Counted from the first letter of the stretch, positions 2,674-14,344 are shown. The stretch is 64,000 bases of DNA from Ignavibacteriales bacterium (GCA_016214905.1 JACRMQ010000006.1:321008-385007), one strand, 5' to 3'. A program made the numbers and translations. Notes: a model not told the origin generated them from the sequence alone.

Positions 2674-4749
2674 TTAATCTAAAAATTCCCAGCTCACACC
2701 GAACCTCATTTGCCTTTCGGGCATAGGATAAAAGGCATTCATTATATATTTTCGATTTAATACATTATCCCAAATCAAATGAATATATGCTTGACCTAAA
2801 TGTGCGAGTATTACAAGGTCAAGAACACCGTTCTGTTGAATCTGGTAACCGTAATCTGACAGTAAGTATTCTTCCACTTCAAAATTATATTCTTCTGCAA
2901 AATAATTGCTGAAGTATCTTCCTCTGAGTCCGCATTTTAAGTCGAGGTGATCACCGAGTATTTTATTCCGATAATATAACGCTCCGGTAAATGACCAACG
3001 CGGGAGGGAGGAGGTTGGAGTTGAATTCTCGTTTATATCGAGATACTCTGCTGTTCCTTCAAATAATAAAAGCCAGTACTGTGCTCTGGTACTTCCGGCG
3101 ATTCCGCGAATGATATTTTTGGTAGATCTGGTATATGCAAATGGGACTGATAATCCTTCGGGTGATCGATTAATATTAATCGCATTCCAAATTATTCTGT
3201 TGAAAGATTTAATTTCGATGTTCATATTTTCAACAGGATCCCAACTCAAACCTGCTTCTAATAAATGATGTCGTTCCGGATCGTTATTCAGGTCTGATGA
3301 TATGATAGTATCGATTCCAATCTTTTCTTGGAATGTCGGTAAACGATAAGATCTTGAATATCCGCCGAAGATAGTCAAACAAGGTGTGAGTTGAAATCTT
3401 GTATCAGTACCAAAACCAAGAATCGTTCTGGAATTTGCGAAGTCGAGGCGAGAATATGGTGATATTCGCATCTGTTCTGAAATTATTATTTCCCCTTTGC
3501 CATATAAATCAGCTAACACCGCACTTCTTTTTTGATCAGTCGTCGAGTGTGTAATTTGCTGTGATTGAATTCCGGCTCCGAAATCGAATGAGTGTCTTTC
3601 GATTGTCAAACTCTGAGTGGCTTTTGCCCCGAACCAATTGCTCACATATTTTTGATCGGAGAAGATACCATTCGAGATAGGTCTATTCTCAAGATCACGG
3701 TATTGCCTTACGTTTGAGATATAATACAGGGTTAACATACTGATAGCGCTCGTGTCTGGAAGCAGCCGGGAGGCAATACCAAGTTGAATATCGTGCCTTG
3801 CGATCTTCTCGTACGCTTCAGTGTTTCGAACAACAGCTTGCAATACTTCGTAGCGGAGAGAATCATGTGTCTGCTTTATATCAACTCCCTGCCAGATACC
3901 GAGGAGTGATTGATTATACATCTCGGACGCGAATAAATTAAAATTCTCGTTCAAATTATAGCGGACTTTGATACGTGCATTCCAATTGTCGTAATTTTCA
4001 TTCAGATATCTTTGTCCATACACAGTATGCTGCGCGCCTGCGGTTATGTTCATACCGCGCAGCACATCCTGACTGACCATGCCATCGATAATACTGAATC
4101 CGTATCCCGATTCGGAATATCGTATTCTTGAATATGGTTTTAACGCTTTCTTACTTTTAGTTATAGAATTTATTGCCGCCCCTGTGCTGTTCAATCCGTA
4201 GAGAAAGGCACGAGTTCCGGTTATTGTTTCAATACGTTCGATACTTTCGGTGGGAAATAAGTACGGATTGTAAATCCCTGTGAACGGATCGTTTAACTGA
4301 ATGCCATCCGCAAAAAAAGAAATACCTTTTCCATCCACACCAAAAATATTTAAACCCGGCAATGGACCCAAACTTCCGAAATCGCGACTGAATATACCGA
4401 CTTTCAATTCTAGCAGGTCAACTGAGTATCGATAATTACTGAAATTAATCACTGAATCTATTAATTGATTGGAAGAAAGATTTTCCCTATCCAGCGCTCC
4501 AATTGTCGGTATGGGCGCAAGGAACTGATGGGAGACAGAATCGACTGCGAGTGAATCGCTTGAAACTGTTTGCGCGAAAGATATTATTGAGCAAACAATT
4601 ATTATGATGCTGATTAGAAATATTCGCAACAGGTTTTCACCAAAATTTAATTTCAAAAATATATAGAAAAGCTGTAACAGATGCAATTTAGGTATGTGGT
4701 AGTCGGGTTGGCGATTGGTGAGTAATAAGTTTATTGAGCAGTTATGCAA
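2674..4749 (-). CDS. TonB-dependent receptor-like outer-membrane beta-barrel with N-terminal plug domain
   Basis: 691-aa ORF. A plug-like region (…IERIETITGTRAFLYG…) is followed by a long beta-strand-rich region. The ORF-track Met at 4749 sits far upstream of the signal-peptide-like segment (LRIFLISIIIIVCSIISFAQ), so the real start is probably an alternative codon (TTG/GTG) near 4650. Confidence 0.55.
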   Translation of the reverse strand: MHNCSINLLLTNRQPDYHIPKLHLLQLFYIFLKLNFGENLLRIFLISIIIIVCSIISFAQTVSSDSLAVDSVSHQFLAPIPTIGALDRENLSSNQLIDSVINFSNYRYSVDLLELKVGIFSRDFGSLGPLPGLNIFGVDGKGISFFADGIQLNDPFTGIYNPYLFPTESIERIETITGTRAFLYGLNSTGAAINSITKSKKALKPYSRIRYSESGYGFSIIDGMVSQDVLRGMNITAGAQHTVYGQRYLNENYDNWNARIKVRYNLNENFNLFASEMYNQSLLGIWQGVDIKQTHDSLRYEVLQAVVRNTEAYEKIARHDIQLGIASRLLPDTSAISMLTLYYISNVRQYRDLENRPISNGIFSDQKYVSNWFGAKATQSLTIERHSFDFGAGIQSQQITHSTTDQKRSAVLADLYGKGEIIISEQMRISPYSRLDFANSRTILGFGTDTRFQLTPCLTIFGGYSRSYRLPTFQEKIGIDTIISSDLNNDPERHHLLEAGLSWDPVENMNIEIKSFNRIIWNAININRSPEGLSVPFAYTRSTKNIIRGIAGSTRAQYWLLLFEGTAEYLDINENSTPTSSLPRWSFTGALYYRNKILGDHLDLKCGLRGRYFSNYFAEEYNFEVEEYLLSDYGYQIQQNGVLDLVILAHLGQAYIHLIWDNVLNRKYIMNAFYPMPERQMRFGVSWEFLD

Positions 4750-4756
4750 TTTAGAT

Positions 4757-5623
4757 TTATTCAGGGTGAAAGTTTGGAGGGGTTATAAATACTTTATACC
4801 GATTCTGGAGTTTTTTAGCTGTTGAAACAGCTTTATGTTCATCGTTGAAGAGACCGAATACAGACGATCCGCTTCCAGACATCTGAGCAAAACAAGCTCC
4901 TTCGGAATACAGCAATAGTTTGGCAAAACCGATTTGCTTATGCTCATGTAATATTATCGGCTCAAAATCATTTATGAGATTTTGATTTAGTTCGTGTGGG
5001 TCATAAATATTTTTTAGAAGAAAATCCTTCAGAGGGATTGGAGATGTCGGATGTGGGATATGATTGATGTGAGATGATTCAAGTGAATGATAAGCCCACG
5101 CAGTAGAAACATGAACATTGGGGTAAAGGATTACAATCCAGTAGGGAAGTGGTAACGAAAAATATTCAAGCACTTCTCCTCTGCCTGTTGCGTGTGCTGT
5201 ACCAGGTTTTAGGAAATAAGGGACATCAGAACCGAGTTTTAAAGCAATCGATTTCAGTTCTTCTTCCGTAATTTTTAGATTCCATAATTTTACTAGTCCA
5301 AGGAGTGTTGCTGCCGCATCGGAACTTCCTCCACCCATTCCTGCGCCTATCGGGATATTTTTTTGAAGATTTATCTTCACACCATTATTAGGATGAAAAT
5401 GATCGTTTAAGATCCTAGCCGCTTTAATGCAGAGGTTAGAGGAATCGGAGTTCAAATTCAGATCATTGGAGTTGAAGCTTATCTCGGTTGCTTCAGTTAA
5501 TATAATTTCATCAAAAGGATTAACCCGCAAAAATATCGTTTCGAGATTATGGTAGCCATCTTCTCTTCGGTTAAGGATTCGCAATCCCAAATTTATCTTT
5601 GCATATGCTTTCACTGAAATCAT
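4757..5623 (-). CDS. ispE: 4-diphosphocytidyl-2-C-methyl-D-erythritol kinase
   Basis: 288 aa. The N-terminus KAYAKINLGLRILNRREDGYHNLETIF and the GHMP kinase motif PIGAGMGGGSSDAAA are diagnostic. Confidence 0.85.
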   Translation of the reverse strand: MISVKAYAKINLGLRILNRREDGYHNLETIFLRVNPFDEIILTEATEISFNSNDLNLNSDSSNLCIKAARILNDHFHPNNGVKINLQKNIPIGAGMGGGSSDAAATLLGLVKLWNLKITEEELKSIALKLGSDVPYFLKPGTAHATGRGEVLEYFSLPLPYWIVILYPNVHVSTAWAYHSLESSHINHIPHPTSPIPLKDFLLKNIYDPHELNQNLINDFEPIILHEHKQIGFAKLLLYSEGACFAQMSGSGSSVFGLFNDEHKAVSTAKKLQNRYKVFITPPNFHPE

Positions 5624-5903: not shown

Positions 5904-8900
5904 ATGAAACATCTTTTTAAAAACCTTGCTTTCGTATATATCATACTGTTGATGATACCATTGTTTCATATTTCGGACATATTTATTTCTTCGGTAATTG
6001 CTGCAGTGCCGGAATATTCATTTCCGAATAATAATTACCCTCCGGAGGGTGCTTATGTAACACCGCGGGGAGTTACGTTAGCGTGGCCCAATGGTGTTTT
6101 GATGAAAAATTTTATTCAATATGGTATTAATCCTGTCGGTATCCCTCCCGGATCGGGAGAAAGCAAAGATTATGTTTGTACAGGTAATGCTACCTTTGAG
6201 CTTTCTTTTAATCAGGGGGGAACCTGGACAACCTTCTCCACCACAGGATCTAATACATTTCATTTGGATTATTTAAAAGATTCTTTGTCGTACAATATTC
6301 ATTCTGGCGAAGTTTATGTTTTGAACCTGAGCGGCGGTTCAATGCCTCCGGGAGTTTTGATCAGGGAAAGTCCGACTCAGGCATCGACGGGACGAACCAT
6401 GTGGTTACCAAACGGTGACAGATACTGGTGTGATAGTTTCTTTGATATATTTTTTGAAATCAGCACGGACGGTGGTATGACATTCTGGCCTCCGCTCGGT
6501 TCTATTTTAATGAAAGCGGTTTCGTTTTATAAAGAGAGTCCATCTGCAATAGTACCTTCGACGAATTTTCCTCCGCACGGAAAGTATCTACAAAATCAAT
6601 CGGATGTTGTTACTTTTCTCTCAGGTGTCAGATTTAAAGATTTTATTCTTCGGGATCTTTTTCATCAGGGAGCATTACCCGATATTTCGCAGGTTTATCC
6701 TTTCAGTGCTGCATGTGATTACTCAATATCGTTCGATGGCGGTTTAACATGGAGTATCAACCATTCTTCGGTGACAATGTCGGTTAGTATAAATAAAATT
6801 GCCGATTCAACGGGAATCGGACTTTATGAAACTGAAGTGATCTCGATGAGTTTTTCGAGTGGTGGAGGTACCCTGATACGTGAGAGTCCCACAAAAAAAT
6901 CTAATAGTAAAATAATTGTCGAGTCACTGGGCTCAGGTTATATGATATCGAGTTTCTTCGATATATTTACTGAGGTTAGCTTAGACGGCGGTACAACCTG
7001 GTCACCAAGTAACAATCTTTTGAATATCGATTTGACATATCCTTCTGCCTATCCTTTCCTGACAAATATGATGATGCCATCGACAGGATACAGAACTAAA
7101 TCAGGCGATGAGATTTCATATTCGTCATTATATAAAATCAGATCTGTTATACTGGATAATTTTTCCTCATCCTTCGCGCCACCGGCATTGGGTGGAACAT
7201 CAACAAATTTGTTTAACGGAACTGCAAATTTTGATTTGAGTTTCGATGGAGGATCAAGTTGGTCGAATGTAACCGCGCCAGCATCATGGCAGGTCAGAAC
7301 TTATCATCACACTGATGATGGTGCGGCAGAATTTTATGAAATAGAGGTACTAGGGCTTAACATCACTGGAGGTGGATTACCTCTCGGTGTTACAATCAGA
7401 GAATCACCTACACTGAAATCCGCCGGTAGGCATGATATCGTCACGACACTTGTGGATTACAACATCAGCAGTTTCTTTGATATTTTTACTGAAATATCCA
7501 CAGACGGGGGGGCAACGTTTATTCAATCTGGAAATTATATTTCATGTACGCTAATTCCACCTTGTCCGACAATTTCATTGATCCCTGAATCGTTGACAGA
7601 TGGAAAAGTAAATGAAGAATATTATCAGGAAATCTCCGCTTCGGGCGGCACATCTCCGTATAGCTATGCGATAGTCGGAGGTTCTTTACCGGATGGAATC
7701 TATCTTTCTTCGAAAGGTATTATTTACGGAACACCTACATCAACGGGATATTCAACATTTACAATTGAAGTAACCGATTCGATCGGGTGCACCGCTTCTG
7801 CGGCGTATTGGATTGCCGTGATGCCCGCCGGTCAGAGGACTTATTCCGACCGATTTCCACAGACCGGAAAGTACTTCCAGCAACCGAATACCGTAGTTTC
7901 ATACTCATCCGGTTTGGCTATTAGAAAGTTTGTCGTACGAGATTTATATCATCGTGGTGAACCACCCGCACTTTACTCTGCTCAAGTTTATAATTTCAGT
8001 GCATCCGTTGATTTAGAAACATCTGGAGATGGCGGGTTGACATGGACGCCTTATTACAATTTACCGGTATCTATGCAGGTCAACCTTAATCATTATAAAG
8101 ATGAAGGGGGGGCGGAACATTTTCTGGCAGAAGTTCTTCAATGCAATATTTCCTCCATCGCCGCGATATACATGATGCGGGAAAGCCCTACACTTGCATC
8201 ACGCAGTAAAGTTATAATGTCTCAGTTCCCTGATGGACAATGGCATGTAGAAAGTTTCTTTGATATCTTCACAGAAGTCAGTGCTGACGGCGGCGCTACT
8301 TGGTCAACAGCACTTAATAAATTAATACTCAATTTTGTGCAACCGGCTGATTCAAAATTTAATTCAACGAATTATTTTCCAACCGATGCACAATTCAAAA
8401 GTATCGGGGGTGATTATATTCAATTCTCGAACGGATTTTTATTAAGGGAATTATTACACGACCGGTTCACACAGTCATTCACGCTTCCGCCACTTTTAAG
8501 TTCTCAAACAAATTCATTCGGGGGAACTGCTGAGTTCGAATTATCGGCTGATGGTGGAATATCATGGACTAAAATTTCCGGCAGCGTAAATGAAGATGTA
8601 TGGATTTATGGTACCTCGGATGATAATAATGCAAGATTTTTCAGTACCGAATTTTTATCATTCTCAATTTCTGGCGGAACATTGCCTCCCGGAACGCAAA
8701 TACGTGAAAGTCCGACTAAACCTTCAAGCGGAAAATACGAATTTTTCACACTTGGGCAGATGGATTACAGGTTATGCAGTTTCTTCGATATTTACCTTGA
8801 GATGACGCTTGATGGAGGAATGACCTGGTCACCTGCCAATAAACCGTTCTATATTCTGATGCGGGGAACACCGGTTACCATGAGTGTGGAAATGAATTCA

Positions 8901-9674
8901 GGTTGGAATATGGTATCTGTTCCGATGATAATGGATGATTACCGTACCTTAATCTTATATCCGACCGCAAAATCTCCGGCATACAGTTTCAACGGAACGT
9001 ACGTGGCTGAAGATACTTTGAAAAATATGATCGGTTACTGGGTGAAATTTTCCGAACCGCAATCGGTCAGCTTTACCGGCTTCGAGATTACACTTGATTC
9101 GGTTGATGTCGTTGAAGGATGGAATATGATCGGCTCGTTATCCGATTCCGTTCCGGTGGCGAATATAACATCTGTTCCTTCAGGAATAATGACGTCGCAA
9201 TTCTTCGGATACGGTAAAGGGTATGTAGATGTTGACACATTGGTACCCGGAAAAGGTTTTTGGGTCAAAGTGAATCAGTCCGGGAGATTATTTATGGACA
9301 ATTCCTTGGGGGGAAGAATAGCCGAAGGAAAGATTCAGATAGTATCGATAAATCAAAAACCGCCTGCGCCGCCGGATGATGATAGAATATCGAATTTCGA
9401 AAAACGAATATCGAATTTTAAATTGGAGCAGAACTATCCCAATCCGTTTAACCCAAGTACAAATATCGAATATCAAATATCGAAAATCGGATTTGTATCG
9501 TTGAAGATATATGATATTCTGGGGCAGGAAATTGAAACGCTTGTGAACGAGGAAAAACAACCAGGTATTTACAACATTGACTGGGACGCGAACGGTTATC
9601 CGAACGGTGTATACCTTTATCGGTTGCAGTCAGGTACTTTCACAGACACAAAAAAATTATTGCTAATGAAATAA
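5904..9674 (+). CDS. Large T9SS-secreted repeat protein: signal peptide, 5 x novel ~170-aa repeat module, He_PIG-type Ig-like domain, type A Por C-terminal sorting domain
   Basis: 1256 aa with an N-terminal signal peptide. Five repeats each end in the motif [IM]RESPT…S(S)FFDIF[TF]E[IV]S.DGG.T[WF]. The segment SASGGTSPYSYAIVGGSLPDGI is a He_PIG (putative Ig) signature. The C-terminal LEQNYPNPFNPST…KIYDILGQEIETL…GVYLYRLQ is a T9SS CTD. Confidence 0.85.
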   Translation: MKHLFKNLAFVYIILLMIPLFHISDIFISSVIAAVPEYSFPNNNYPPEGAYVTPRGVTLAWPNGVLMKNFIQYGINPVGIPPGSGESKDYVCTGNATFELSFNQGGTWTTFSTTGSNTFHLDYLKDSLSYNIHSGEVYVLNLSGGSMPPGVLIRESPTQASTGRTMWLPNGDRYWCDSFFDIFFEISTDGGMTFWPPLGSILMKAVSFYKESPSAIVPSTNFPPHGKYLQNQSDVVTFLSGVRFKDFILRDLFHQGALPDISQVYPFSAACDYSISFDGGLTWSINHSSVTMSVSINKIADSTGIGLYETEVISMSFSSGGGTLIRESPTKKSNSKIIVESLGSGYMISSFFDIFTEVSLDGGTTWSPSNNLLNIDLTYPSAYPFLTNMMMPSTGYRTKSGDEISYSSLYKIRSVILDNFSSSFAPPALGGTSTNLFNGTANFDLSFDGGSSWSNVTAPASWQVRTYHHTDDGAAEFYEIEVLGLNITGGGLPLGVTIRESPTLKSAGRHDIVTTLVDYNISSFFDIFTEISTDGGATFIQSGNYISCTLIPPCPTISLIPESLTDGKVNEEYYQEISASGGTSPYSYAIVGGSLPDGIYLSSKGIIYGTPTSTGYSTFTIEVTDSIGCTASAAYWIAVMPAGQRTYSDRFPQTGKYFQQPNTVVSYSSGLAIRKFVVRDLYHRGEPPALYSAQVYNFSASVDLETSGDGGLTWTPYYNLPVSMQVNLNHYKDEGGAEHFLAEVLQCNISSIAAIYMMRESPTLASRSKVIMSQFPDGQWHVESFFDIFTEVSADGGATWSTALNKLILNFVQPADSKFNSTNYFPTDAQFKSIGGDYIQFSNGFLLRELLHDRFTQSFTLPPLLSSQTNSFGGTAEFELSADGGISWTKISGSVNEDVWIYGTSDDNNARFFSTEFLSFSISGGTLPPGTQIRESPTKPSSGKYEFFTLGQMDYRLCSFFDIYLEMTLDGGMTWSPANKPFYILMRGTPVTMSVEMNSGWNMVSVPMIMDDYRTLILYPTAKSPAYSFNGTYVAEDTLKNMIGYWVKFSEPQSVSFTGFEITLDSVDVVEGWNMIGSLSDSVPVANITSVPSGIMTSQFFGYGKGYVDVDTLVPGKGFWVKVNQSGRLFMDNSLGGRIAEGKIQIVSINQKPPAPPDDDRISNFEKRISNFKLEQNYPNPFNPSTNIEYQISKIGFVSLKIYDILGQEIETLVNEEKQPGIYNIDWDANGYPNGVYLYRLQSGTFTDTKKLLLMK

Positions 9675-9734: not shown

Positions 9735-12101
9735 ATGAAAAATGCAAGATTACTGCTTTTAATCTTCCTTGTTTTATTGCCCGCAATCGTTTATTCGCAG
9801 ATTCCACGGACAATATCATACCAAGGTGTTCTAACGGATGATTTAGGTAATCCGAAACCGAACGGACGATATTTATTTACCTTCAAATTGTATGACGTCA
9901 GTTCAGGAGGAGTGGCGCTTTGGACTCAGGCAGAAAGTCTTCAAGTAGAAAGAGGTCTATTTAGCTCTCTATTAGGACAAACACCTTTCGGTCCCTCCAT
10001 GTTATTTGATAAACAATATTGGTTAGGAATTCAAGTAAATGCTGATCTGGAACTTGCTCCTCGAGTTAAACTCTCCTCGGTTGGTTATAGCTTGAATTCG
10101 GCACATGCCGATACAGCTGAATATTCTCGTGTTGCACCGTCGGGTGGTGTAGCAGACAGCGCCAGAATCGCCGGAACAATTCCAAATAACAGTATTACCA
10201 GCGCAAAGATATTAAACGGCACAGTTCAGTTTGCAGACATTGCTCAAAATGGTGCCGCCGTCGATCAGATTATGAAATGGAACGGTGTTATCTGGACACC
10301 GAGGAATGACTCTGTTGGTACTTTAGGAGTCAGCAGTCAATGGACAACACTCGGCTCCGATATTTATTATAACCTTGGTAATGTTGGTATTGGTGATACA
10401 AACTATCCTAGTTACAAATTAGATGTATTACATACTGGATCAACGGGTATCCGGAGCCGTTCGAGCGCCAGTTTCTCAGTTGTTGATATAGATGCATTTA
10501 GTGGTGATGCTGCATTACGATTTCAGAAAGCCGGTATTGGCCAGTGGAATATCCGCAACCGCCCCAGTGACGATTATCTTGAAATATTTGAATTAGGCGG
10601 TGGTGGCAGTCGTATGGTAATACAGGATGCAACAGGAAATGTCGGGATCGGTGAAACCACAGCACCATCTTACAAATTAGATGTATTGCACGCTGGTTCA
10701 ACAGGTATCCGCAGCAGATCAAGTGCATCCTTCTCAGTCGTTGATATTGATGCAAATTCTGGCGACGCCGCATTACGTTTTGCTAAGGCTGGAGTTAACC
10801 AGTGGAATATTCGTAATCGTCCCGGTGATGATTATTTAGAAATATTTGAATTAGGTGGCGGCGGAAGTCGTATGGTGATCCAGGACGCGACCGGTAATGT
10901 CGGTATTGGTGAAACTACTTCACCGTCTTACAAATTGGATGTATTGCATGGTGGTTCAACAGGTGCTCGTATCAAATCATCATCCAGTTTCTCTGTCGTT
11001 GATATTGATGCCGCAAGTGGCGATGCAGCATTACGTTTCCAGAAAGCTGGTGTCAACATGTGGAACATCCGCAACCGTCCCAGTGATGATAATTTAGAAA
11101 TATTTGAATTAGGTGGCGGAGGAAGTCGTGTTGTAATTGAGGATTCTACAGGATTTTTCGGAATAAATACTAGTAATCCTACGGCTCAATTAGAGGTTAC
11201 GGCAGGTGCTACCAGAGGTATATATGGAACGTCAAGTATTTTATCTAATATAGATGGAGCCGTATATGGTAATAATACTGCAGGTCCTACTGCAGCGCTT
11301 GCAACACAGAATAATGGTATATACGCACATAGCACTGTAAGCGGTGGAGCCGCTGTTTTTGGGGACAATGGTTATAGTAATACTGTTGGATATGCAGGAT
11401 ATTTTGCAGGTCGTGTACACGTTAGCGGAACACTTTCAAAATCTGCCGGTTCTTTTAAAATCGACCATCCTATCGATCCAGAAAACAAATATCTTTCTCA
11501 CAGCTTCGTGGAAAGTCCGGATATGATGAATATTTACAATGGCAATATTGTAACAGATGCTACCGGTAAAGCCGTGGTATCACTGCCGGAGTATTTTGAA
11601 GCATTGAATATGGATTATCGTTATCAATTGACAGCCATTGGCTCTTTTGCTCAAGCAATCATTTCGAAAAAAGTACAGAATAACCAGTTTGAAATTGCAA
11701 CCAGTCTTCCCAATGTTGAGGTAAGCTGGCAGGTAACAGGTATCCGTAATGATGCTTATGCCAAGAAAAATCGTATTCCGAATGTTGAAGATAAAGAATC
11801 GGTGAACAGAGGTAAGTATTTAAATCCTGAGTCATTCAATTTACCGGCAACCCGAGGCATTGACTTTGCAGGTCAGACGGATGGATCCGTCTCGCAAACT
11901 CAAACGACCTCTATTCCGCAGCAGACTCAGCAAACAGTTATCGAAACCGGCGGCAGTCTAGATCAGGCGCCTGCGACTCAAACAGTTCCGAAATCAGTTG
12001 AGAACTCAGGAAGCGTTGCTAATACCGATGCAGTAAAGGCAGTAACAAAACCTGCTGATAACTCGGGCAGTGTTCTTGATACTCCGAATGATAAACGTTA
12101 A
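9735..12101 (+). CDS. Secreted tail-fibre-like repeat protein with an S/T/Q-rich C-terminal tail
   Basis: 788 aa with signal peptide MKNARLLLLIFLVLLPAIVYSQ. N-terminal segments resemble phage tail fibres (…ITSAKILNGTVQFADIA…). Three tandem 86-aa repeats follow (SYKLDVLH.GSTGIRSRSSASFSVVDIDA.SGDAALRF.KAG..WNIRNRP.DD.LEIFELGGGGSR.VI.D.TG). A conserved globular C-terminal block (FKIDHPIDPENKYLSHSFVESPDMMNIYNGNIVTDATGKAV) precedes a low-complexity tail. Confidence 0.75.
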   Translation: MKNARLLLLIFLVLLPAIVYSQIPRTISYQGVLTDDLGNPKPNGRYLFTFKLYDVSSGGVALWTQAESLQVERGLFSSLLGQTPFGPSMLFDKQYWLGIQVNADLELAPRVKLSSVGYSLNSAHADTAEYSRVAPSGGVADSARIAGTIPNNSITSAKILNGTVQFADIAQNGAAVDQIMKWNGVIWTPRNDSVGTLGVSSQWTTLGSDIYYNLGNVGIGDTNYPSYKLDVLHTGSTGIRSRSSASFSVVDIDAFSGDAALRFQKAGIGQWNIRNRPSDDYLEIFELGGGGSRMVIQDATGNVGIGETTAPSYKLDVLHAGSTGIRSRSSASFSVVDIDANSGDAALRFAKAGVNQWNIRNRPGDDYLEIFELGGGGSRMVIQDATGNVGIGETTSPSYKLDVLHGGSTGARIKSSSSFSVVDIDAASGDAALRFQKAGVNMWNIRNRPSDDNLEIFELGGGGSRVVIEDSTGFFGINTSNPTAQLEVTAGATRGIYGTSSILSNIDGAVYGNNTAGPTAALATQNNGIYAHSTVSGGAAVFGDNGYSNTVGYAGYFAGRVHVSGTLSKSAGSFKIDHPIDPENKYLSHSFVESPDMMNIYNGNIVTDATGKAVVSLPEYFEALNMDYRYQLTAIGSFAQAIISKKVQNNQFEIATSLPNVEVSWQVTGIRNDAYAKKNRIPNVEDKESVNRGKYLNPESFNLPATRGIDFAGQTDGSVSQTQTTSIPQQTQQTVIETGGSLDQAPATQTVPKSVENSGSVANTDAVKAVTKPADNSGSVLDTPNDKR
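10405..11180 (+). repeat. 3 x 258-bp in-frame tandem repeat inside CDS 9735-12101
   Basis: The anchor 'tacaaattagatgtattgca' recurs at 10413, 10671 and 10929, giving a period of exactly 258 bp. The encoded 86-aa units are ~90% identical, while the DNA copies are only ~75% identical with mostly synonymous differences. Confidence 0.85.
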
Positions 12102-12133
12102 TTCTGTTGACAACTCATAAACGAGGTGATGTC

Positions 12134-12688
12134 ATGAAAATAAATTATTCAAATAAAAATATAAGGCGGGCGGTAATATTGCTGCCGCTCTGCCTGATGC
12201 TCTTATTAAATTTTGCTCTTTCACAAAACGCTAAGATCACATGGTCGTCGTTCAATATGGGATTTGCAAAATCTCAAACCACGAACACGATGGTCAGTTC
12301 TGTTGTTGGACAGAATTTTGTAGGAACATCGATACAAGGAAACACTGAAGTTGTAAGCGGATTTTTGGCGGATACTTTATTCAGAGGAACAGTAGTTGCA
12401 GTTAAAGAAAATGAAGAATTACCTGCAAAATACTCACTCGAACAAAATTATCCGAATCCGTTCAACCCGTCTACAACAGTTCAATTCAGTATTGTTAATA
12501 CTCAATTGACAGTGCTGAAAGTGTACGATGTACTCGGTAAAGAGGTAGTGACCTTGATAAACGAGGTGAAGCCACCCGGTGCGTACACCGTAAGATGGGA
12601 CGCGGTTGGATATCCGAGCGGTGTTTATTATTACCGCTTACAGGCAGGAAATTTCATCGAAACTAAGAAATTAATTTTGATGAAGTAA
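12134..12688 (+). CDS. Small T9SS cargo protein (type A C-terminal sorting domain)
   Basis: An ATG at 12134 is preceded by GAGGTG. The ORF track starts earlier, at TTG 12107. Signal peptide MKINYSNKNIRRAVILLPLCLMLLLNFALSQ. The C-terminal LEQNYPNPFNPSTTVQF…KVYDVLGKEVVTL…GVYYYRLQAGNF is a T9SS CTD. Confidence 0.75.
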   Translation: MKINYSNKNIRRAVILLPLCLMLLLNFALSQNAKITWSSFNMGFAKSQTTNTMVSSVVGQNFVGTSIQGNTEVVSGFLADTLFRGTVVAVKENEELPAKYSLEQNYPNPFNPSTTVQFSIVNTQLTVLKVYDVLGKEVVTLINEVKPPGAYTVRWDAVGYPSGVYYYRLQAGNFIETKKLILMK

Positions 12689-12750: not shown

Positions 12751-12934
12751 TTCAACCGAATAAAATACTGAGAGGGATATCCGCAAGGAGCAGGCATGTC
12801 TTTCTTCCAACCACTTGCGGAATTATTCAAATTATCCAGTATTTTTTATCTATTAAATCGATTTCTTGACATTATCTAACCTAAATCAGTATATTGAACT
12901 GGGATGCACAAACTTAAAGACAAGTCGGAATTAT

Positions 12935-14344
12935 ATGAGGAATGGAACAATGAATAATATTTATACTAAGTTCACGTGGGTGGTTTTATGCTTTATCGCT
13001 GTTGCATCTCTTAATGCGCAACCGAAGTACAGAACTTTCAGCCAATTCTCTTTAAGCGAGAAGAAAGCAAAAGCCGGTAAAGTTCTCAGCAGTAATTCGT
13101 CTTTTGTTTTTGGAAATGATGTTAGCGGAATAACTGTAAATGGTTTACATGCCCGGTTTAATTCCGCGATAATTGGTATCCTCGATTCAGGTGGTTTCAC
13201 ATCAATTGTAATTGGTGATAAAAGAAAAACAATCACCGCGAGCGGGCGGACAATTGCTGCAGGTGATTCTGTGATACTTACATTCAATCTGGAAAAGAAA
13301 GCTCCGGGCGCTCAGGCAAATTTCTGGTGGTGGGAACTGGATGGTAGTATGATCGGTGATAAACGCGAAGGACTTGCCGGTACTTTCGAAGGTATCTCAA
13401 TCCAACCTAATGGCGGTAACTTACTTGAATTTATTTACAAACGAATTGTACATCGTCCTCAGGGGATTGTTGTTGGAATGATGACCGATACAAATGATGT
13501 GGGGCGGATCAGATACAAAACAGCTGATCGAAAATTTTTCCCCCACTCGGGCGTAGCGCGTTGCTTTGATCGGATTAGCACCGGTTCTGCCATCACGCGT
13601 CCGTTCAATCGCGAATTGAAGAATCCGCATGTTAAAAAACATAATAACCATTTGCTGGGCGAAGTTCACGCGTTGAAACTTGCAGTGATTGCAAACGACT
13701 CCGGCGCAACTCAGCCCTTAGATACAACAGCATTGGGTGATTTAATATATAATGATCTCGGTAACCCAAGCGATCCGGGAAATGGATTAACGATCCGGCA
13801 ACTGATTTACCTCGTCGATTCTGCCCTTACATATTGCGACCATTTTGATTTGAATCCCGAAATTTACGCGAAGCTCGATACATGCGTCAGCAGAATCAAC
13901 CGTGCGTTTGATGGAGATTATATTGCTGTAAGCTTATTCCCGTTTGTCGTTGCAGGAACTCACTCAGTTGATGAATATTCATTCATTCATCCGAATCCCG
14001 CGGCGGCTCCGTTTACCAGACGTTCACACGATTATTCAATGTTGGATCAGCAGCCCGAACAAATTTCCTTATTACAGAATTACCCGAATCCCTTCAATCC
14101 GACTACAACGATCTCCTTCTCAATTGCTCAGGAGGGACGTGTTACATTGAAAGTATACAATATGCTTGGTCAGAATGTAGCCACGTTGCTGAATAACGAA
14201 GTTATTGATGAAGGTGAGCAGGAAATTGAATTTGACGCATCATCGCTGACAAGCGGTGTTTATTTATACAGAGTTGAAGTAACCGACATATCCAATCCCA
14301 CAAAGATGTTCACGCAAGTGAACAAAATGTTATTGGTTAAATAG
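12935..14344 (+). CDS. Secreted hypothetical protein with T9SS type A C-terminal sorting domain
   Basis: Signal peptide MNNIYTKFTWVVLCFIAVASLNAQ, with candidate start Met at 12935 or 12950. The C-terminal LLQNYPNPFNPTTTISF…KVYNMLGQNVATL…GVYLYRVEV is a T9SS CTD. The central ~350 aa match nothing I recognise. Confidence 0.7.
   Translation: MRNGTMNNIYTKFTWVVLCFIAVASLNAQPKYRTFSQFSLSEKKAKAGKVLSSNSSFVFGNDVSGITVNGLHARFNSAIIGILDSGGFTSIVIGDKRKTITASGRTIAAGDSVILTFNLEKKAPGAQANFWWWELDGSMIGDKREGLAGTFEGISIQPNGGNLLEFIYKRIVHRPQGIVVGMMTDTNDVGRIRYKTADRKFFPHSGVARCFDRISTGSAITRPFNRELKNPHVKKHNNHLLGEVHALKLAVIANDSGATQPLDTTALGDLIYNDLGNPSDPGNGLTIRQLIYLVDSALTYCDHFDLNPEIYAKLDTCVSRINRAFDGDYIAVSLFPFVVAGTHSVDEYSFIHPNPAAAPFTRRSHDYSMLDQQPEQISLLQNYPNPFNPTTTISFSIAQEGRVTLKVYNMLGQNVATLLNNEVIDEGEQEIEFDASSLTSGVYLYRVEVTDISNPTKMFTQVNKMLLVK

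Follow-up and report, generated by a model that had tools for sequence, protein, structure and literature searches.

The 1256-aa protein encoded at positions 5904 to 9674 of the window (the whole 64,000-nucleotide stretch of Ignavibacteriales DNA that was analysed) contains five copies of a module of about 172 aa, which amounts to a domain of unknown function rather than to a novel mechanism or system. Its most likely function is plausibly that of an autonomous surface-displayed binding module, which would here form a pentavalent T9SS-anchored adhesin. A sequence-only reading had described a T9SS cargo with an Ig-like spacer and five copies of a module of about 170 aa. Five units with one RESPT motif each were indeed found in the ORF, and both the C-terminal sorting domain (CTD) and the He_PIG domain scored above their cut-offs. 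The gene is laid out as follows.

5904..9674, + strand: whole gene of the 1256-aa T9SS cargo protein, with ATG start and stop codon at 9672-9674
5904..6002, + strand: probable signal peptide, aa 1-33 (MKHLFKNLAFVYIILLMIPLF...SSVIA), read from the sequence
6003..6527, + strand: module copy 1, aa 34-208 (profile match 247.6 bits; alignment)
6534..7040, + strand: module copy 2, aa 211-379 (profile match, BLASTP, alignment)
7041..7559, + strand: module copy 3, aa 380-552 (profile match, alignment)
7590..7820, + strand: He_PIG (PF05345) Ig/cadherin-like domain, aa 563-639, between copies 3 and 4 (Pfam)
7839..8342, + strand: module copy 4, aa 646-813 (profile match 242.7 bits; AF2 model)
8343..8867, + strand: module copy 5, aa 814-988 (profile match)
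8868..9323, + strand: second uncatalogued beta domain of about 150 aa, aa 989-1140 (AF2, homologue comparison)
9324..9434, + strand: Pro-rich linker, aa 1141-1177, with a short peptide repeat (RISNFEKRISNFK) (AF2 low confidence)
9435..9671, + strand: T9SS type A C-terminal sorting domain, aa 1178-1256 (PF18962, TIGR04183)

On inspection, aa 1-33 had a hydrophobic core with small residues after it. He_PIG reached 46.6 bits against a Pfam cut-off of 24, and the CTD, matched at aa 1178-1253 of 1256, reached 42 bits with TIGR04183 (cut-off 23) and 35.7 bits with PF18962 (cut-off 27). The linker was modelled by AF2 with a pLDDT below 50, and a DNA repeat search located 7/14-nt tandem repeats at 9385-9416 and 9460-9489. 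Large T9SS type A adhesins of Bacteroidota share the layout of (here probable) signal peptide, beta-domain array, Ig-like domain and type A CTD, but the repeat here is uncatalogued and is not the usual Ig, FN3, cadherin or PKD domain. Orthologues with 60-78% identity to the protein came from MAGs of Ignavibacteriales and related groups; their annotation reads 'hypothetical protein', 'putative Ig domain-containing protein' or 'T9SS type A sorting domain-containing protein'. Two further CTD-bearing ORFs were seen nearby, at 12107-12688 and 12866-14344.

In every unit, the S-x-D-G-G-x-T-W motif is present twice, and RESPT and SFFDI[FY] once each. The five RESPT motifs listed below are the only ones in the protein, and SFFDI[FY] is likewise found five times, at aa 178, 350, 523, 784 and 959.

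6363..6377, + strand: RESPT of copy 1 (aa 154)
6879-6893, + strand: RESPT of copy 2 (aa 326)
7398-7412, + strand: RESPT of copy 3 (aa 499)
8178-8192, + strand: RESPT of copy 4 (aa 759)
8703-8717, + strand: RESPT of copy 5 (aa 934)

The five units aligned over about 172 aa with 28-43% identity and 23 invariant columns. Their similarity in pairwise BLASTP is far above chance (E 9e-22 for unit 1 against unit 5, and 2e-41 for unit 2 against unit 4). Copy 2 was nearest to copy 4 (43% identity), and copy 3 to copy 5 (37% identity). No repeat of the five units was found at the DNA level, which indicates duplication long ago rather than an error of assembly. The 8-20 variable residues that had been described between RESPT and SFFDIF turned out to be a fixed spacing of 19-20 residues, and this stretch includes two nearly invariant residues, S at +3 and G at +5 after RESPT.

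The 'DGG.TW' pattern had been counted as part of an unrecognised module, with a hint at calcium binding. Alone among the parts of the unit, it has an established name, the classical Asp-box/BNR motif (PF02012), and the calcium hint has no basis, since the Asp-box is a structural beta-hairpin that occurs in several folds (PMC2716378). Pfam BNR scored 48.5 bits on the whole protein (cut-off 27, E 2.1e-13). Ten motifs of the form S/T-x-D/N-x-G-x-T/S-W/F were confirmed by translation, and the first one of copy 1 is degenerate (SFNQGGTW).

6204..6227 (aa 101) and 6462-6485 (aa 187), + strand: Asp-boxes of copy 1, translation checked
6729-6752 (aa 276) and 6978-7001 (aa 359), + strand: Asp-boxes of copy 2, translation checked
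7239-7262 (aa 446) and 7497-7520 (aa 532), + strand: Asp-boxes of copy 3, translation checked
8022-8045 (aa 707) and 8280-8303 (aa 793), + strand: Asp-boxes of copy 4, translation checked
8544-8567 (aa 881) and 8805-8828 (aa 968), + strand: Asp-boxes of copy 5, translation checked

The sequence-only reading had proposed a structure prediction and a Foldseek search of one unit. Copy 4 alone (aa 646-808, 163 aa) was modelled confidently by AF2, with a pLDDT of 93.9 and a pTM of 0.84. The model of aa 33-1175 had a pLDDT of 90.5 and the same strand pattern in all five units, and its pTM of 0.53 is too low to show that the copies are rigidly arranged. In the models every Asp-box is predicted to be a hairpin loop joining two long strands. 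Coevolution was analysed by mfDCA on 743 module copies (Neff 668). It paired the strands flanking the Asp-boxes (65-78, 66-77, 152-163, 154-160), gave strong couplings inside the hairpin (68-72, 70-74), and traced antiparallel ladders b1-b2, b2-b3, b3-b4, b4-b5, b5-b6, b6-b8 and b8-b9, with a closing ladder b9-b1 (26-168, 24-170, 30-162). The duplication within each unit, at which the sequence-only reading had hinted, was recovered by hhalign, in which the N half matched the C half with 96.8% probability (E 2e-10). Together, the couplings and the AF2 models, which use overlapping family alignments and are not fully independent, support a predicted up-and-down beta-barrel or sandwich of eight strands, closed on itself, whose two four-strand halves are homologous.

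Foldseek found nothing at E 1e-3 or better for the unit model in the PDB and BFVD. The best PDB matches were non-significant (E 0.25 or worse, TM 0.13-0.32) and mostly up-and-down barrels: nitrobindin, avidins and designed barrels. Avidins, lipocalins, nitrobindin, the designed mFAP and OmpA-type barrels share with the module a next-neighbour antiparallel meander closed by the first and last strands, but the module differs in its much longer strands (15-20 residues), its Asp-box hairpins and its internal twofold duplication. The agreement is in topology class alone, and the sequences showed no relationship to these barrels. For the full-length model, the matches were limited to generic multi-domain beta proteins and to local stretches of about 100 residues, namely the SraP cadherin-like modules 4m02/4m03 and dystroglycan 8uf4. 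These local matches (for 4m02, rmsd 3.0 A over 97 columns, probability 1.00) probably belong to the He_PIG domain, the Foldseek output carrying no query ranges.

Among the 743 family copies, the Arg of the RESPT motif (R121) was conserved in 100%, S123, P124, S128, G130, S145, F146, F147 and D148 in 98-99%, E152 in 97% and E103 in 91%. The pairs E103-E122, S123-E152 and T125-E152 covaried in mfDCA, which suggests that those residues lie side by side. By hydropathy alternation, R121/S123/T125 and F146/D148/F150/E152 were placed on the non-core face, while the facing of E103 is obscured by a bulge at M104/L105; solvent exposure of the cluster is suggested by hydropathy alternation and covariation. 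The near-invariant polar and aromatic residues (R-E-S-P-T, S, G, S-F-F-D, E) are on the adjacent strands b5, b6 and b8, next to the second Asp-box of the unit. This polar cluster might be a pocket, a surface or a buried network of salt bridges, and could be purely structural. An isopeptide or ester cross-link domain was rejected, as no Lys, Asn, Gln or His is invariant in the 743 copies.

The family comprises at least 2280 clusters at 50% identity, from Ignavibacteria/Bacteroidota, Verrucomicrobiota, Planctomycetota, Lentisphaerae and Armatimonadota. Uncultured Ignavibacteria, Verrucomicrobia and Planctomycetes commonly carry the module, and the genomic matches listed were all in MAGs. Copy number ranged from 1 to 12 per protein. 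Many homologues are proteins of about 220 aa consisting of a leader, one module and a PEP-CTERM, MYXO-CTERM or VPDSG-CTERM anchor, and their abundance indicates that the module cannot be a spacer only. It was always accompanied by surface-sorting tails (T9SS CTD, PEP-CTERM, MYXO-CTERM, VPDSG-CTERM or dockerin-like), and its partner domains are of the adhesin type: HYR, He_PIG, PKD, choice-of-anchor D, FG-GAP and SdrD-B. The 'choice-of-anchor' proteins and the PEP-CTERM proteins, which are exosortase substrates such as the flocculation protein PepA (floc_PepA, NF033554), likewise combine one domain with several sorting signals, and in some bacteria PEP-CTERM proteins and exopolysaccharide are required for floc formation (PMC9850573, PMC9012009). 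In eight single-module homologues, none of the curated choice-of-anchor or PEP-CTERM models reached its cut-off. The best scores were 27.2 bits for floc_PepA (cut-off 80) and 22.7 bits for EDSAP-1 (NF041538; cut-off 100), and both matches extended into the PEP-CTERM tail.

On balance we lean towards a surface protein whose modules are autonomous binding units, the five copies together making a multivalent adhesin or matrix-binding protein; the adhesin or binding array suggested by the sequence-only reading is thus plausible. The probable signal peptide would take the protein across the inner membrane and the type A sorting domain would direct its export through the type IX secretion system, after which, by analogy with studied T9SS cargo, it may become attached to the outer membrane. 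Each predicted half-module ends in an Asp-box hairpin, which would act as a structural clip, as in other folds. The conserved R-E-S-P-T / S-F-F-D / E cluster is a putative functional site for a ligand or metal, and five tandem putative binding modules would confer multivalency. A more specific and clearly more tentative proposal is that the module represents a new fold family, a pseudo-twofold, eight-stranded Asp-box barrel that would be a widespread surface module of uncultured PVC-superphylum and Ignavibacteria/Bacteroidota bacteria, independent of the type of anchor. Its invariant RESPT...SFFD...E site might specifically bind a ligand, for example exopolysaccharide or another glycan, so that arrays of 2-12 units might act as multivalent bacterial lectins or adhesins of a class not recognised so far.

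The modules might instead be a rigid stalk that projects the domain of about 150 aa or thickens the surface layer, in which case the invariant residues and Asp-boxes would be purely structural. In proteins such as reelin, Asp-box hairpins do contribute structurally to contacts between domains (PMC2716378), and neighbouring copies of the module abut without linkers: in 366 of 459 neighbouring full-length pairs (80%) the gap was about 12 residues or less. Coevolution of neighbouring copies gave no inter-unit interface signal; the strongest couplings linked identical positions of the two copies (159-159, 25-25, 122-122), which reflects concerted evolution of neighbouring copies and not contacts. 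The partner domains He_PIG, HYR and PKD are typical of stalks, and the domain of about 150 aa is conserved in T9SS-tagged homologues, being found at the equivalent position in about 25 Ignavibacteria/Bacteroidota-type proteins, most of them with a T9SS CTD. Verrucomicrobial and planctomycetal arrays, however, are without it, and a stalk with nothing to carry is implausible for the abundant proteins made of leader, single module and anchor. Charged and polar residues kept at nearly 100% across phyla, at about 30% overall identity, would also be unusual for a pure stalk, and we regard this explanation as unlikely.

The C-terminal domain itself (aa 989-1140, between unit 5 and the CTD) was absent from the sequence-only reading. 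It carries a twofold internal motif, GWNM[VI] ... G[YF]WVK, was modelled by AF2 with a pLDDT of about 90, and had no match in Pfam even at E 10.

The claim that the unit belongs to no named family was upheld within the libraries covered: Pfam-A 2025, NCBIfam 20.0 and the PDB sequences matched only its Asp-box hairpins. Pfam was scanned with each unit and 68 family members, and NCBIfam with the protein and the eight single-module homologues; neither gave a family spanning the whole unit. BNR, matched by 57 of the 68 members, was the only model that most of them matched. Sequence queries of the PDB with the whole protein, a five-unit profile and the 68-sequence family profile gave only matches to sialidases and sortilin that were short, confined to the Asp-boxes and no better than E 0.017; those to sialidases covered stretches of 13-57 residues. 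A literature search for the module motifs (SFFDIF and IRESPT types) or for Asp-boxes with PEP-CTERM found nothing relevant.

Relatives may have been missed by insensitive searches, the unit being a diverged form of a known Asp-box beta-sandwich such as a reelin-type jelly roll or a carbohydrate-binding module. Reelin subrepeats A/B also place an Asp-box in a non-propeller beta domain, head-to-tail in a large extracellular protein, and the role of the Asp-box in the module is probably structural, as in reelin (PMC2716378). Reelin_subrepeat-B (PF21471) scored 37.2 bits on the whole protein, above the 27-bit cut-off, and matched 13 of the 68 family members weakly. This score, however, is a sum of sub-threshold local matches with no significant stretch; the best match spanned only profile positions 58-94 of 127, about 37 positions around the Asp-box, and single units reached E 0.0038 at best. 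Foldseek may miss distant likeness among elongated all-beta domains; it gave no significant PDB match for the unit, and the 50 best hits included no reelin entry. A jelly-roll fold and a single Asp-box characterise the reelin subrepeat (PMC2716378), whereas the module shows a coevolution-derived meander topology and two Asp-boxes per unit, without an EGF spacer and with a RESPT/SFFD signature unmatched by the reelin model. The reelin-type jelly roll was rejected on the topology, the two Asp-boxes and the Foldseek result, and a diverged known sandwich in general seems improbable to us.

BNR proteins such as the sialidase, GH74 and Vps10/sortilin propellers are, like the module, secreted and built on a repeated S-x-D-x-G-x-T-W hairpin, but the module is a self-contained 172-aa closed meander with two Asp-boxes about 86 aa apart and is also known as single-domain proteins. 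In propellers of the sialidase (GH33) or Vps10 type, the whole array is one domain of radially placed four-stranded blades, each with one Asp-box between its strands 3 and 4. That ten regularly spaced Asp-boxes form ten blades of one glycosidase-like or receptor-like propeller of the sortilin/Vps10 or sialidase type, as the PDB sequence matches above and a full-length Foldseek match to SorCS2 (E 2e-6, but TM 0.07 and rmsd 28 A) might suggest, is very improbable and was rejected: the 83-89 aa Asp-box spacing exceeds blade length, He_PIG splits the array 6 + 4 with a 175-aa gap, the 172-aa unit folds alone (pLDDT 94) with strand ladders closing within it, one-unit proteins and 2-12-unit arrays both exist, no propeller was among the single-unit Foldseek matches, BNR_2 (PF13088) matched only 2 of 68 members, weakly, and no sialidase-type catalytic domain was detected by sequence or fold.

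Genomic context is not conserved and gave no functional hint. The 78% orthologue keeps the flanking genes and is missing the window's three downstream ORFs, and single-module homologues lie in unrelated gene neighbourhoods; a conserved operon partner was rejected. Promoter and terminator scans gave nothing above shuffled background.

The present annotation of the protein is uninformative, although its main building block accounts for at least 2280 clusters. The groups that carry this module are known mainly from metagenomes, and their cell surfaces have hardly been studied. The module combines an Arg conserved at 100%, about 15 near-invariant residues, a confident model and the lack of a solved relative with free exchange between at least four surface-sorting systems, and so merits consideration as a Pfam family of its own. 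For the Asp-box, this would add one more fold to the propellers, reelin jelly rolls, Ig-like domains and ribonucleases in which it is already known.

The open reading frame at 5904-9674 (+) starts with ATG and encodes 1256 aa. RESPT was found in the product exactly five times (aa 154, 326, 499, 759 and 934) and SFFDI[FY] also five times, and ten S/T-x-D/N-x-G-x-T/S-W/F motifs were spaced by 83-89 aa, with one exception across an insert. The five units (aa 34-208, 211-379, 380-552, 646-813 and 814-988) aligned over ~172 aa with 28-43% identity and 23 invariant columns, and BLASTP related unit pairs to each other (1 versus 5, E 9e-22; 2 versus 4, E 2e-41), confirming the five-fold repeat described in the sequence-only reading. 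Its description of the product as a T9SS cargo with a He_PIG domain also held, since both domains scored above the curated cut-offs. The parts of the protein discussed here are as follows.

6534-7559 versus 7839-8867, +, units 2-3 versus units 4-5, paired blocks compared by unit identity
aa 563-639, +, He_PIG domain
8868-9323 (aa 989-1140), +, second uncatalogued beta domain of ~150 aa, AlphaFold2 pLDDT ~90
aa 1178-1253, +, T9SS type A sorting domain

Unit 2 was closest to unit 4 (43% identity) and unit 3 to unit 5 (37%), in each case reciprocally, which suggests that a block of two units was duplicated. At the DNA level the units did not form a tandem repeat, and the G+C of the gene matched that of its neighbourhood; therefore, the copies are old and not an assembly artefact.

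The 'S.DGG.TW' motif was identified as the Asp-box, or BNR repeat (PF02012), at 48.5 bits against a cut-off of 27 (E 2e-13). The Asp-box, a well-described beta-hairpin, is known from sialidase and Vps10 propellers, reelin jelly-roll subrepeats, some Ig-like domains and microbial ribonucleases, and its role is structural wherever one is known (PMC2716378). The calcium binding at which 'DGG.TW' had been thought to hint is therefore unsupported. The 1256-aa protein belongs both to the BNR/Asp-box repeat secreted proteins and to the T9SS type A cargo; it does not fall into the curated PEP-CTERM families.

Predicting the structure of one unit, as had been proposed from the sequence, gave a confident all-beta AlphaFold2 model (unit 4, aa 646-808; pLDDT 93.9, pTM 0.84; input, a 68-sequence family alignment) whose strands reached 15-20 residues. 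No Foldseek match in the PDB reached E 1e-3 (best E 0.25; TM at most 0.32), and BFVD yielded none either. The non-significant top matches were mostly up-and-down barrels (nitrobindin, avidins, designed barrels and an OmpA), which the module resembles in topology, with all superpositions non-significant. Mean-field DCA of 743 non-redundant module copies from 343 homologues (Neff 668) placed the top couplings on antiparallel ladders between strands b1-b2, b2-b3, b3-b4 (spanning Asp-box 1), b4-b5, b5-b6, b6-b8 and b8-b9 (spanning Asp-box 2), and a closing ladder joined the C-terminal to the N-terminal strand (26-168, 24-170 and 30-162). These ladders matched the strands assigned to the model by DSSP, and the unit is thus predicted to be a barrel or flattened sandwich of eight strands, closed and with next-neighbour pairing throughout. 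When the N half of the unit was aligned with the C half by hhalign, 'GIxIR...F...S.DGG.TF' was paired with 'GVMIRESPT...SFFDIFTE.S.DGG.TW' (96.8% probability, E 2e-10, 51 columns). This result bears out the suspected internal duplication and indicates that the barrel arose by an ancient 4+4 duplication.

In a longer AlphaFold2 model (aa 33-1175, 65-sequence alignment; pLDDT 90.5, pTM 0.53), the strand pattern was identical in all five units. Foldseek matched this model to generic multi-domain beta proteins, with local matches of ~100 residues to SraP cadherin-like modules, dystroglycan and a Bacteroides fragilis domain; we attribute these tentatively to He_PIG, the output giving no query ranges.

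Among the 743 copies, R121 was conserved in 100%, G158 in 99-100%, S123, P124, S128, G130, S145, F146, F147 and D148 in 98-99%, E152, D156 and W161 in 97%, E122 in 93% and E103 in 91%, figures that are raised to some extent by the selection of the copies with the profile. The conserved residues sit on adjacent strands b5, b6 and b8, beside Asp-box 2, and the pairs E103-E122, S123-E152 and T125-E152 covaried in DCA. Hydropathy alternation placed I143, F147, I149 and L153 in the core, and F146, D148, F150, E152 and S154 on the opposite face together with R121, S123 and T125. The presence of this conserved, mixed aromatic and charged face in every copy, and also in single-module proteins without any other domain, argues that the module has a function of its own; the face would most likely be a ligand site or a metal site. 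Alternatively, these residues could form a buried network with a stabilising role, and the modules could serve mainly as a stalk for the C-terminal domain, which we consider rather unlikely. If the face is a binding site, the product would be an adhesin or matrix-binding protein anchored via the T9SS and made multivalent by its five tandem copies.

Pfam-A (2025 copy) and NCBIfam 20.0 contained no family covering the whole unit; the hairpins alone matched. In a one-by-one scan of 68 family members, 57 matched BNR, and the remaining matches were to sorting-signal models, HYR (one member) and, scattered and weak, to other families, some of which contain an Asp-box (Mo-co_dimer, CHB_HEX_C). Profile searches of all PDB sequences returned Asp-box matches alone (13-57 residues; sialidases, sortilin), at E 0.017 or worse. 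We thus found no family for the unit as a whole in these libraries or by Foldseek in PDB and BFVD. The module had been reported as unrecognised, which stands for the whole unit and not for its 'DGG.TW' part; what is known here is the hairpin motif and the type of surface protein, and what is new is a domain that the searched libraries do not contain, although a distant known relative may exist outside them.

That the unit is a diverged reelin-type or CBM domain is improbable. The whole protein did score 37.2 bits with Reelin_subrepeat-B, but this total was added up from local matches below threshold near the Asp-box (profile positions 58-94 of 127), no stretch being significant, the unit topology is not a jelly roll, and the protein does not group with reelin subrepeats. 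A propeller built from the ten Asp-boxes is very hard to credit, because the unit closes on itself as a predicted eight-stranded barrel or sandwich rather than forming a blade pair; nor does the protein belong to the Asp-box propeller families.

The wide search with a five-copy profile, also proposed in the sequence-only reading, showed a large family: exhaustive HMMER comparison with 1.84 billion cluster representatives matched 2280 proteins at E 1e-3 or better (1292 at E 1e-10 or better), with up to 12 module copies and lengths up to 4422 aa. A word-indexed search gave 957 proteins at E 1e-5 or better, many of them ~220 aa long, with a single module between a leader and a C-terminal anchor. 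Partner domains were HYR, He_PIG, PKD, choice-of-anchor D, FG-GAP, SdrD-B, LTD and Ig. Neighbouring full-length copies were separated by at most about 12 residues in 366 of 459 pairs (80%). Same-position DCA couplings between neighbouring units were also seen across the family, a sign of concerted evolution.

The tails differed by lineage: a T9SS CTD in Ignavibacteria and Bacteroidota; PEP-CTERM, MYXO-CTERM or VPDSG-CTERM in Planctomycetota and others; and a dockerin/EF-hand-like 'NVADLNCDxKVxFxDxAxxAxxWL...C' in Sedimentisphaerales and Phycisphaerae (loci L015, L028, L031, L032 and L035). Module arrays of Verrucomicrobiota and Lentisphaerae carried a recurrent '...(R)FYRV/FYRI/FFRL...' C-terminal segment, seen at loci L005, L007, L012, L013, L020, L037, L041, L043, L049, L052, L065 and L070, and no T9SS or PEP-CTERM tail; this segment may represent a C-terminal domain for sorting or anchoring that is new to the literature. 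In GTDB species-representative genomes, one scan confirmed 97 coding stretches and a second one 308. All listed loci (L002-L145) were from MAGs of Ignavibacteria/Bacteroidota, Verrucomicrobiota, Planctomycetota, Lentisphaerae and Armatimonadota and a few odd bins, and no cultured isolate was among the best 80 matches of each scan.

The ~150-aa domain at aa 989-1140 follows the last module and precedes the linker and CTD. Internally it shows a twofold motif (GWNM[VI]S/G ... G[YF]WVK), and Pfam gave no match to it even at E 10. It was kept at the same position in ~25 homologues of Ignavibacteria/Bacteroidota type, most with a T9SS CTD; in the remaining collected proteins, mainly verrucomicrobial and planctomycetal, it was not found. 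The pre-CTD linker contains 7/14-nt tandem repeats (9385-9416 and 9460-9489) that encode the peptide repeat RISNFEKRISNFK at pLDDT <50.

The gene is flanked by the following.

2674-4749, -, TonB-dependent receptor, upstream and divergent
4757-5623, -, GHMP-kinase gene, upstream and divergent
9735-12101, +, 788-aa ORF, no Pfam or NCBIfam match
12107-12688, +, 193-aa ORF, a T9SS type A CTD its sole recognisable part
12866-14344, +, 492-aa ORF, T9SS type A CTD without other recognised domain

The closest orthologue (78%) was in an Ignavibacteriales groundwater MAG (locus L001) with flanking synteny kept. The three ORFs 3' of the window gene were missing from that locus, and the neighbours of single-module homologues were unrelated, so the gene looks like a stand-alone unit. 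Together the three ORFs make up a small T9SS cargo gene cluster. The 193-aa ORF starts six bases past the 788-aa ORF in a different frame, and the two, both missing at L001, may be one frameshift-split cargo gene or two genes. The receptor and kinase arrangement was syntenic at the orthologue locus, with no evident functional link to the module gene.

The modules constitute a large domain family that is under strong constraint, had no structural relative in these searches and is carried on the surfaces of phyla about which little is known. The family merits a Pfam entry and a structure and, as to function, is still a domain of unknown function.
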